Shown piece by piece: positions 15,048-15,924 of a stretch of DNA of 16,140 nt. Every line of letters starts with the position of its first letter. Position 1 is the stretch's first letter. The position numbers and the translations under genes are program-made. Source of the DNA: a virus (lineage: Duplodnaviria; Heunggongvirae; Uroviricota; Caudoviricetes); the IMG/VR virus record IMGVR_UViG_640753025_000003; one strand, 5' to 3'. Under the pieces are notes generated by a model. It saw nothing but the letters and a program-made list of their open reading frames with translations. It was not told the origin of the DNA and searched no databases.

Positions 15048-15160
15048 GGATATTTATCAGGATTTATCGGCTTCAAATCCCCGGATATGTTAAATCTTAC
15101 CTCACCAGTGATGGGCACTGGCGGGAGGAGGATGTCAATCTGATAAACACAGAGGCGACT

Positions 15161-15421
15161 ATGGATTACACAAATCTACCTAAACAAACTTTTGCTGATT
15201 TAATCGCACTCAGGCAAGCAGTCGTAGCTCTAATCAACTTGTTGCCGGAGAAGGAAAAGGAATTAGTTAAAGCGCTTCTTAACAGAACTGCCGCCGATTT
15301 TTCATCATATCCACTGACAGATGACCTTGCGGACCTTCCTGAATTAATTGCAGCGTCCGCCAATAAGCTTACTGAAGAGATTTACCCTCCTCAAAAATCT
15401 TCACAAAATTCCTGCGAGTAA
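15161..15421 (+). CDS. Hypothetical acidic 86-aa protein, convergent with the lysis operon
   Basis: ATG at 15161 with AGAGG RBS at spacing 5. Followed 23 nt later by a GC hairpin plus T8 terminator. Overlaps the 3' end of the minus-strand 183-codon ORF by 53 nt. Confidence 0.45.
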   Translation: MDYTNLPKQTFADLIALRQAVVALINLLPEKEKELVKALLNRTAADFSSYPLTDDLADLPELIAASANKLTEEIYPPQKSSQNSCE

Positions 15422-15920
15422 CTTCAATGCAATAATCGTAAAACGCCGCAAACTGCTCATCGCGGCGTTTTTTTTCATCTTCAGAAGGAATCAGCACCGA
15501 CAATTTTTTATTCAGATCAGCGACGCTGCCCTCCAGTTTTTCAATGGGCGATTCAATATCATCTTTTTCTGACCGCAATGCCGTCGGTGGCGTCTTCAGA
15601 GAACCAGTAATTCTTCCCGGTAGCTTTCCTTTGTAGGTTATCCACACATTCTGCGCCTCTAAAATTATGGGGCGCTTTTCCGGCGACTGCTCATCCCCTT
15701 CACATAACCCGGCAGCAACATCCAGGAAGACCTGTCTGATGCTCCTTCTGGCTGCTGCCTCATAAAACTCCAGCGCGGCACCTTCAACACGGTCCAGCGA
15801 GATGTCCAGGTCAAAAATTTCACCGTCAAAGTGTTTTTTGTCCCGTAAGGCTACAGTTACCGCCACTTTATTCTCAAAATTGCGAACTCCTTTCACAACC
15901 AGTTCATAGTCTTGAGTCAT
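15369..15920 (-). CDS. Hypothetical 183-aa protein inserted between holin and endolysin (occupies the position of ydfR in Qin)
   Basis: ATG at 15920 with GAGAG-type RBS, 4 nt after the holin stop. Acidic soluble-looking protein (MTQDYELVVKGVRNFENKVAVTVALRDKKHFDGEIFDLD...). I recognise no motif. The track's longer 190-aa version starts at a TTG. Confidence 0.6.
   Translation of the reverse strand: MTQDYELVVKGVRNFENKVAVTVALRDKKHFDGEIFDLDISLDRVEGAALEFYEAAARRSIRQVFLDVAAGLCEGDEQSPEKRPIILEAQNVWITYKGKLPGRITGSLKTPPTALRSEKDDIESPIEKLEGSVADLNKKLSVLIPSEDEKKRRDEQFAAFYDYCIEVTRRNFVKIFEEGKSLQ
15444..15475 (+). terminator. Rho-independent terminator (stem CGCCGC/GCGGCG, then T8) after the plus-strand 86-codon ORF
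   Basis: CGCCGC(15444-15449), 12-nt loop, GCGGCG(15462-15467), TTTTTTTT(15468-15475). The same hairpin lies inside the coding region of the minus-strand 183-codon ORF. Confidence 0.5.
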
Positions 15921-15924
15921 TGGA

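Follow-up and report, generated by a model that had tools for sequence, protein, structure and literature searches.

A convergent gene module of probable moron type in the lysis operon of a Qin-like Escherichia coli prophage

Holin and endolysin genes are immediate neighbors in many phage records with S21-type lysis cassettes (as read from the record features under one match). The 16,140-nucleotide stretch of DNA from IMG/VR record IMGVR_UViG_640753025_000003 (referred to here, at its full length, as the window) raises the question of what occupies the 877 bp (15048 to 15924) that separate its holin gene essQ from its endolysin gene rrrQ. A preliminary description, made from the sequence alone, had estimated this gap at about 870 bp, had called the cassette interrupted on the ground that S and R are normally contiguous, and had seen in it a single two-gene insert of unknown function and moron-like character. 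The length and the interruption both hold, the latter because many S21-type records have S and R adjacent. The single two-gene insert does not, since the first of the two genes is ydfR, an accessory gene of the cassette, though a very common one, and the mobile unit measures only about 0.5 kb. We consider it probable that this smaller unit is of moron type, consisting of a leader, a ribosome-binding site (RBS), a convergent gene that we call Y and a hairpin, that it lies partly inside a late-strand coding segment, X, that it moves as one piece, and that in the window it is fused to ydfR. This reading starts from what can be observed directly, namely the anatomy and conservation of the module, the polymorphism of the slot that holds it, its difference in composition and the conservation of its hairpin. 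The features of the interval are as follows.

15369 to 15920, minus strand: 183-codon open reading frame (ORF), YdfR::X, with an ATG start; the ORF scan gives an alternative TTG start at 15941
15585 to 15920, minus strand (16686 to 17021 in locus L001): YdfR/DUF1327 domain, residues 1 to 112 of the 183-codon ORF (PF07041, E 2.6e-42)
15369 to 15584, minus strand: tail X, residues 113 to 183 plus the stop codon of the 183-codon ORF, predicted helical
15161 to 15421, plus strand: gene Y, 86 codons, PHROG 2572 (phrog_2572, E 4.4e-53, full length), with the RBS GAGG (15151 to 15154) 6 nt before its ATG
15048 to 15160, plus strand: leader of Y, with a −35-like TTATCG (15064 to 15069), a −10-like TATGTT (15086 to 15091), a structured stretch (15094 to 15133) and the RBS
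15440 to 15475, plus strand: hairpin, presumed terminator of Y, with a 10-bp stem and a 12-nt loop (15440 to 15471) followed by a T-run (T8) to 15475

Boundaries and contexts of the module

Where does the mobile part begin and end? In a pairwise comparison with the 114/116-residue forms of YdfR, the extra DNA of the window spans approximately 15099 to 15584, about 0.5 kb; X is missing from these forms, and homology ends at 15585. Similarity to Stx1 (Shiga toxin 1) phages and to the 296-residue form of YdfR continues to about 15430 and resumes at 15125 in the Stx1 phages and at 15053 in the 296-residue form; compared with the Stx1 phages, the differing stretch is 15126 to 15428 only. Taken together, these alignments indicate that the variable unit consists of X (residues 113 to 183) plus Y and is smaller than the 877-bp interval. 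It also differs in composition from its surroundings, with a GC content of 41.4% in Y and 41.7% in X versus 49.1% in the DUF1327 part and 51.9% in R, and a GC content at third codon positions of 0.36 in the module versus 0.50 to 0.54 in its neighbors.

Comparison across cassettes, which the preliminary description had proposed as a check on whether the insert is variable, bears this out. Some cassettes have Y and others lack it while the flanking genes stay the same, the distance from YdfR to R ranges from direct overlap in K-12 to approximately 1.26 kb, and other cargo genes occur in the slot. The holin type of the window is found in 427 phage records and DNA from the 15048-to-15924 interval in 107; among the records with this holin and without the interval DNA, many show direct S/R overlap. 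The arrangement of X and Y itself is conserved in three subfamilies and at two positions of the cassette:

Type 1 (the window): S21 holin, then YdfR::X convergent with Y, then R; overlap of 53 nt
Type 2 (loci L180, L184 and L090): S21 holin, then a 243-residue YdfR with an X-like tail convergent with a 93-residue Y, then R; overlap of 59 nt
Type 3 (loci L175 and L087): Rz/Rz1, then a stand-alone 73-residue X convergent with a 93-residue Y, then the terminase region; overlap of 59 nt

In type 3, the ATG of X overlaps the Rz stop codon and is preceded by the Shine-Dalgarno sequence AGGGGG. L175 and L176 have a different kind of holin and of endolysin, and in these two loci DUF1327 is absent to a distance of 5 kb from the module, which makes the module independent of YdfR.

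Each of the three Y subfamilies is found inside a lysis cassette, and two positions in the cassette are represented. This could suggest that Y is a dedicated regulator of lysis by pinholin and signal-anchor-release (SAR) endolysin, for example a lysis-timing inhibitor, and its restriction to lysis cassettes would then be explained. We regard this as highly improbable. Y has neither a transmembrane segment nor a signal peptide, as judged from its sequence and from an AlphaFold2 (AF2) model, whereas the membrane or the periplasm is where holins, antiholins and SAR endolysins work. Moreover, Y is oriented opposite to the late operon and is therefore not coexpressed with the lysis genes, the places where it occurs, among accessory genes or behind Rz, are classic ones for morons, and the type 3 cassettes combine it with a different holin and endolysin.

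Gene Y and the slot that holds it

The preliminary description had given the convergent 86-codon ORF its own RBS, its own terminator and a 53-nt tail-to-tail overlap with the 183-codon ORF, and all three are found: GAGG lies 6 nt upstream of the ATG, the overlap covers 15369 to 15421, and a hairpin with a T-run follows at 15440 to 15475. Y is more than a chance ORF because it matches PHROG 2572 over its full length, recurs in 314 of 5,426 complete E. coli genomes and has remote relatives that keep the arrangement; on this comparative evidence, we take Y to be a real coding gene. A profile search of 1.84 billion representative proteins with Y retrieved P0139 (93 residues, E 7.5e-14) and P0140 (89 residues, E 2e-11), the former being 49% identical to Y by BLASTP and matching phrog_2572 on its own (E 3.5e-27). 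In relatives at 38 to 49% identity, the ORF, its orientation and the 3′ overlap are all kept. A scan of genome representatives located Y in E. coli only, and a metagenome scan contributed one further locus. Within E. coli, the diversity of Y is low, with nine distinct nucleotide variants and 25 variable sites (8/4/13 over the three codon positions), and variants with in-frame indels exist. With so few variable sites (25), dN/dS (the ratio of nonsynonymous to synonymous substitution rates) does not separate the sense frame of Y (0.55) from one antisense frame (0.47). A 65-residue shadow ORF antisense to Y was rejected, as it is not kept in the remote subfamilies.

The AF2 model of Y contains three helices (residues 8 to 26, 30 to 48 and 56 to 74) with a predicted local distance difference test score (pLDDT) of 74. 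The protein is acidic (pI 4.6, net charge −5.5) and has no hydrophobic segment, so that Y is predicted to be a soluble cytoplasmic three-helix protein. The statement that neither ORF carries a recognizable motif stands for Y, which has no match in Pfam, NCBIfam or PADLOC, and falls for the 183-codon ORF, which carries a DUF1327 domain. Foldseek gave zero matches of the Y model to the PDB, and PADLOC-DB 2.0 gave no match at E ≤ 1 for Y, the 183-residue protein, stand-alone X, P0139, P0140 or the 210-residue and 104-residue cargo proteins described below. Subthreshold matches of Y and X (GCIP_C, E 0.011; DUF1823, E 0.13; CLZ; ABC_tran_CTD) were dismissed as noise. The DUF1823 label on the Y homolog in the PhiR5_1 and PhiR12 records is likewise unsupported (PF08853, 12.9 bits versus a cutoff of 25, E 0.13), and the anti-CRISPR AcrIIC4 was rejected as a relative of Y (E 0.12 against PDB sequence profiles, with no significant similarity to solved AcrIIC4 structures). 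Literature searches on DUF1823, the PhiR phages, the accession numbers and lysis-cassette morons found nothing specific.

Stx1 phages carry a 210-residue convergent gene in place of Y. In the Stx1a phage LC567819 (L006), this gene (2631 to 3263, plus strand) is unannotated, while a 263-residue “hypothetical” YdfR ORF is annotated at 3012 to 3803 on the minus strand, antisense to the 210-residue gene over 252 nt. The 210-residue gene has full-length homologs at 53 to 65% identity, and its conservation indicates that it is a real gene and that the 263-residue annotation is probably overextended. It has no Pfam, PHROG or PADLOC match. Homologs are found in other moron positions (4001 to 4633 in L185 to L187; 626 to 1258 in L188), one of them belonging to a Salmonella prophage remnant, where sodC is approximately 1.8 kb away, and another convergent directly after lambda-like tail genes. 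RefSeq annotation of E. coli genomes also often omits the 210-residue gene. Two further fillings of the slot were found, a 104-residue convergent gene (phrog_1853) in L045, which shows no similarity to Y by BLASTP, and two short ORFs in L056. Since unrelated cargo genes have the leader in common, joined in Stx1 phages by the hairpin, the site is best described as a moron exchange slot. The moron-like character proposed at the outset is thus upheld by presence and absence between the same flanks, by the lower GC content, by the RBS and hairpin of Y and by unrelated cargo in the slot.

What the cargo genes share lies on either side of them. In the alignment of the leader, the blocks ATTTATCAGG, TTATC and, 16 nt further on, TAT..T are invariant at loci with four different cargo genes, including the after-Rz context, and the leader is predicted to fold at −23.6 kcal/mol (z −2.98). 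A weak promoter followed by a leader is a plausible interpretation of this sequence. The YdfR forms without an insert keep 27 to 51 bp of the leader beside R and are therefore probably deletion derivatives. As a separate observation, the leader contains a near-palindrome, CCAGTG-N5-CACTGG (15105 to 15121), with an equivalent site in L043, L006 and L045; other loci have a longer version, reaching CCGCCAGTG/CACTGGCGG, and even type 3 preserves the core, GTGGTGGG(A)CAC. A T5 run comes after it in L045, where it resembles a leader terminator. The near-palindrome could be an attenuator or a protein-binding site.

On the other side, the hairpin begins about 20 nt past the Y stop codon, within the coding sequence of X. 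A consensus terminator scan missed it because its loop is 12 nt long. The stem is identical in type 1 and in the after-Rz loci of type 3, where it likewise follows Y, and in type 2 (L180/L090) one stem G-C pair is replaced by A-T with both arms changed, a compensatory exchange that alters R to H and A to V in the X frame. The hairpin is retained in the Stx1 phages with their different cargo gene, and one of its arms is deleted in the 296-residue form of YdfR, which has no convergent gene. This pattern of conservation fits a terminator that serves whichever gene fills the slot.

Several observations weigh against a moron-type unit expressed from its own signals. A consensus promoter scan called no promoter in the leader, the −35-like hexamer agrees with the consensus at three of six positions, and the T-run after the hairpin is strong in type 1 only and poor in types 2 and 3. 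The ratio of nonsynonymous to synonymous polymorphism (pN/pS) of Y in the close E. coli clade, at 0.55 over 25 variable sites, indicates weak selection, and some prophage copies of Y are broken by a stop codon, a frameshift or loss of the ATG. Searches of Y against Pfam, NCBIfam, PADLOC and the PDB yielded no informative family, structural or defense-system match that would constrain its function. Finally, the similarity among X subfamilies coincides with the 3′ end of Y and the hairpin; because the similar stretch is the exact site of these two elements, the DNA, and not the X protein, may be what is constrained.

With these points in mind, the moron-type reading can be stated as two nested layers of accessory DNA within an S21-type lysis operon. 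The first layer would be ydfR, a late gene cotranscribed with S, R and Rz, whose product might have a role in lysis or in the handling of late mRNA. The second would be the mobile, low-GC module of approximately 0.5 kb, whose late strand holds the 71-residue helical X, fused in frame to YdfR, and whose opposite strand holds an independent unit made up of the leader with its weak promoter-like site, the RBS, Y and the hairpin terminator. The hairpin and the last 17 codons of Y sit within X. Y would be transcribed from its own promoter against a silent late operon, most likely in the lysogen, and its transcript would end at the hairpin; during lytic growth, a Q-modified polymerase would pass the hairpin, and YdfR::X would be made. 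Y itself would probably act through binding another protein.

The YdfR::X protein and the pairing of X with Y

The coupling of the 183-codon ORF to the holin stop noted in the preliminary description corresponds to a gap of 4 nt (TAA-TCCA-ATG), and the ATG is preferred over the TTG at 15941 because N termini in the family read MTQ[DN]YEL. Residues 1 to 112 score 143.4 bits against PF07041, above the gathering cutoff of 25, and the family name given to the gene by the Prokaryotic Genome Annotation Pipeline (PGAP) is “YdfR family protein.” DUF1327 DNA is present in 4,348 of the 5,426 complete E. coli genomes (80%), with up to 10 copies per genome. The N-terminal part is close to K-12 YdfR (approximately 85% identity over residues 1 to 72, counted by hand from the alignment), and AF2 gives residues 5 to 73 a beta-beta-beta-alpha fold with pLDDT values of 65 to 82. 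A 2026 study reported that K-12 YdfR binds the catalytic N-terminal half of RNase E, as seen in a two-hybrid assay and by copurification; that residues 1 to 72 are enough for the interaction with RNase E 1 to 597; that RNA copurifies with YdfR; and that few transcripts are altered when it is overproduced (PMC13232886).

The segment that follows, residues 74 to 112 (15585 to 15704; CEGDEQSPEKRPIILEAQNVWITYKGKLPGRITGSLKTPP), is among the most conserved stretches of the family. AF2 models it as disordered (pLDDT of about 30), and it is missing from K-12 YdfR. These residues may fold only with a partner. Beyond residue 112 or so, all length forms of YdfR diverge. Lengths of 103, 114/116, 169/171, 176, 183, 211, 243, 268 and 296 residues were found, in addition to the 263-residue ORF annotated in the Stx1 phage record, whose end is doubtful. 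The 296-residue form has an extra C-terminal domain (phrog_1085). In an IMG/VR prophage (L047, 2245 to 3012), approximately 0.77 kb of extra DNA lies inside ydfR after about residue 77 and contains a 125-residue ORF that is a candidate transposase by eye; the X/Y module downstream of this interruption is intact.

In K-12, YdfR is 103 residues long and its stop codon overlaps the rrrQ start (ATGA), so that there is no gap between the two genes. This overlap suggests translational coupling, and the sequence comparison indicates that the inserted module takes this coupling away in the window (15048 to 15060 versus 4055 to 4058 in K-12, L002). We further observed no obvious Shine-Dalgarno sequence before the rrrQ ATG of the window (…CCTGATAAATATCC-ATG; 15048 to 15060).

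Is the 183-residue fusion a gene in its own right or the debris of one? PGAP annotates residues 1 to 112 only, as a pseudogene (“incomplete; missing C-terminus”), and leaves residues 113 to 183 unannotated. One could accordingly regard the ORF as a decayed gene, a truncated remnant of the 296-residue form (phrog_1085) in a cryptic prophage, with the convergent ORF and the hairpin as relics. The PGAP mark and the existence of the longer form speak for this, as do the state of the window, where what is left of a Qin-like prophage is heavily deleted and includes truncated pseudogenes for tail tip and terminase, and the occurrence of some X and Y copies with frameshifts or stop codons. Yet we judge decay to be very unlikely. 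The full 183-residue ORF matches phrog_2091 from end to end (183/183, E 8e-112) and belongs to a large protein cluster (P0019) with 681 member sequences. The arrangement is also present in PhiR63_1 and 2H10, phage records deposited as complete genomes, and is therefore compatible with a full phage genome. In-frame indels in X (among them −21 nt and +84 nt) preserve the frame, three different ones reaching the same stop, X is a separate gene elsewhere, and Y is conserved down to 38% identity. Because of the large cluster, the complete phage genomes, the frame-keeping indels and the separate X gene, the pseudogene call is probably wrong, and the label is probably an artifact of comparison with the 296-residue form.

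Full-length X occurs in 313 of the 5,426 complete E. coli genomes. AF2 places helices at residues 126 to 143 and 147 to 180 with low pLDDT, and the tail is predicted to form soluble helices (grand average of hydropathy [GRAVY] −0.75, net charge −3.6, no hydrophobic stretch). Stand-alone X and the tail in the window are 43% identical over the last 35 residues (BLASTP, E 9e-6). Pfam, NCBIfam and PADLOC searches of X gave subthreshold noise only, and a match to the PARP1 BRCT domain among PDB sequence profiles (E 0.009) was rejected as probably spurious.

The main rival of the moron-type reading is that X and Y are functionally coupled. Y would be expressed in the lysogen and would hold back X (or YdfR::X), which is made late, acting either as a protein or as an antisense RNA by way of its mRNA 3′ end. 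The two transcripts would pair over at least 53 to 59 nt of overlap and over the hairpin region, and a lysis-cassette protein would in this way come under antidote or antisense control. None of the 80 IMG/VR loci examined had Y without X (and the two have near-equal genome counts, 314 for Y and 313 for full-length X), the pair moved together to a second site after Rz, where X stands alone with a strong Shine-Dalgarno sequence, overlaps of similar length (53 and 59 nt) persist at 38 to 49% protein identity, and the hairpin shows one compensatory change. Against this, X occurs without Y, both in the Stx1 phages with the 210-residue cargo and as an internal segment of the 296-residue YdfR form, and X is hydrophilic rather than toxin-like; X and Y are both acidic, which leaves no charge complementarity. 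The stop codon and terminator of Y lie inside X, which makes Y physically inseparable from X, and their cooccurrence is thus expected without any functional link. On balance, we consider a coupled pair unlikely.

It is nevertheless tempting to speculate that X and Y form a self-contained, portable control pair, in which lysogen-expressed Y (as protein or as an antisense 3′ mRNA end across the overlap and hairpin) would gate the late helical X, here fused to the RNase E-binding YdfR domain. We think this quite unlikely; if it were true, control of host mRNA decay would be tied to the lysis program via the YdfR fusion. In a weaker variant, the leader and hairpin would constitute a reusable “expression socket” for swapped, unrelated genes expressed in lysogeny.

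Prophage setting and comparison with known systems

Many E. coli strains, HS and PCN061 among them, have at the ydfJ locus a Qin-like cryptic prophage that is identical to the window over the 1.2 kb used as query. The gene order on the minus strand of the window is essQ, the 183-codon ORF, rrrQ, rzpQ with embedded rzoQ, and cspI, and the neighbors of the interval are the following.

15925 to 16140, minus strand: essQ, class II holin (phage 21 S-type), upstream boundary (Phage_holin_2_1, PF04971, E 3.3e-34; PHROG holin families; named essQ by PGAP in identical genomes)
14514 to 15047, minus strand: rrrQ, lysozyme-type endolysin, downstream boundary (Phage_lysozyme, PF00959, E 2.6e-24; phrog_7, endolysin; named rrrQ by PGAP)
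14020 to 14517, minus strand: rzpQ with embedded rzoQ

The prophage cold-shock gene cspI is preceded by a full-length cspA-type thermoregulator 5′ untranslated region (13398 to 13814, minus strand; Rfam RF01766, 109.8 bits), which lies just beyond the lysis cassette on its downstream side. This was the sole match in an Rfam scan of 12000 to 16140, which found none within the interval. According to the PGAP annotation, positions 1 to 13000 of the window are a heavily deleted Qin-like prophage with ydfK, pinQ, a 1,258-residue tail fiber, an Ail/Lom protein, DUF1441, gnsB and ynfN, and with a tail-tip pseudogene fused to a terminase pseudogene. Since the rest of the window is so heavily deleted, the lysis cassette resides in a defective element.

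Taken together, the feature is probably best seen as an uncharacterized element of a known moron type. Its architecture is neat and conserved, and there may be a link to YdfR, the RNase E-binding protein. The analysis newly defines the X/Y module (PHROG 2572), which is compact, convergent and conserved, and also a slot with polymorphic cargo inside lysis operons of E. coli and Stx prophages. For annotation, this means that the 183-residue YdfR::X fusion is probably miscalled a pseudogene and that the 263-residue “YdfR” of LC567819 runs antisense through what appears to be a real 210-residue gene. Any lysogen-benefit, exclusion or counterdefense activity that Y or its slot-mates may have is now open to simple deletion tests, and the natural YdfR-X fusion provides a handle on the role of a very common prophage protein newly linked to RNase E. 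If Y is inert cargo, the locus is a case of ordinary lambdoid mosaicism.

How does the module compare with systems already known? Morons were reportedly defined in lambdoid phages by Juhala et al. in 2000, and examples are bor downstream of Rz in lambda and gp15 of HK97. Like these, Y is an extra gene that is absent from close relatives between the same flanks, is oriented against the late operon, has its own RBS and a predicted hairpin terminator and deviates in composition; as with lambda bor, one Y subfamily directly follows Rz. Unlike them, Y has its terminator and its last 17 to 19 codons inside a cotraveling late-strand X, its promoter is weakly predicted, and, in contrast to the envelope proteins Bor and Lom, the protein is predicted to be cytoplasmic. 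Lambdoid phages also undergo mosaic exchange at conserved boundary sequences, which is reminiscent of the leader-side flank shared by the Y, 210-residue and 104-residue genes and of the hairpin shared by Y and the 210-residue gene, although the shared flanks here would resemble expression signals rather than neutral linkers.

Compared with YdfR of the K-12 Qin prophage, the protein in the window occupies the same position between essQ and rrrQ and has the same N-terminal domain (about 85% identity over residues 1 to 72). The K-12 protein, at 103 residues and with its ATGA overlap with rrrQ, has no X tail or convergent gene, whereas the window protein adds the segment from 74 to 112 and X. Finally, type I toxin-antitoxin systems with a convergent 3′ overlap, such as txpA/RatA and bsrG/SR4, are known from prophage elements of Bacillus subtilis. 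In these systems, as in X and Y, two prophage units converge and share tens of nucleotides at their 3′ ends. Unlike their toxins, X is hydrophilic (GRAVY −0.75) rather than a small membrane peptide, and unlike their antisense RNAs, Y appears to be a conserved protein-coding gene, with homologs at 38 to 49% identity, rather than a noncoding transcript.

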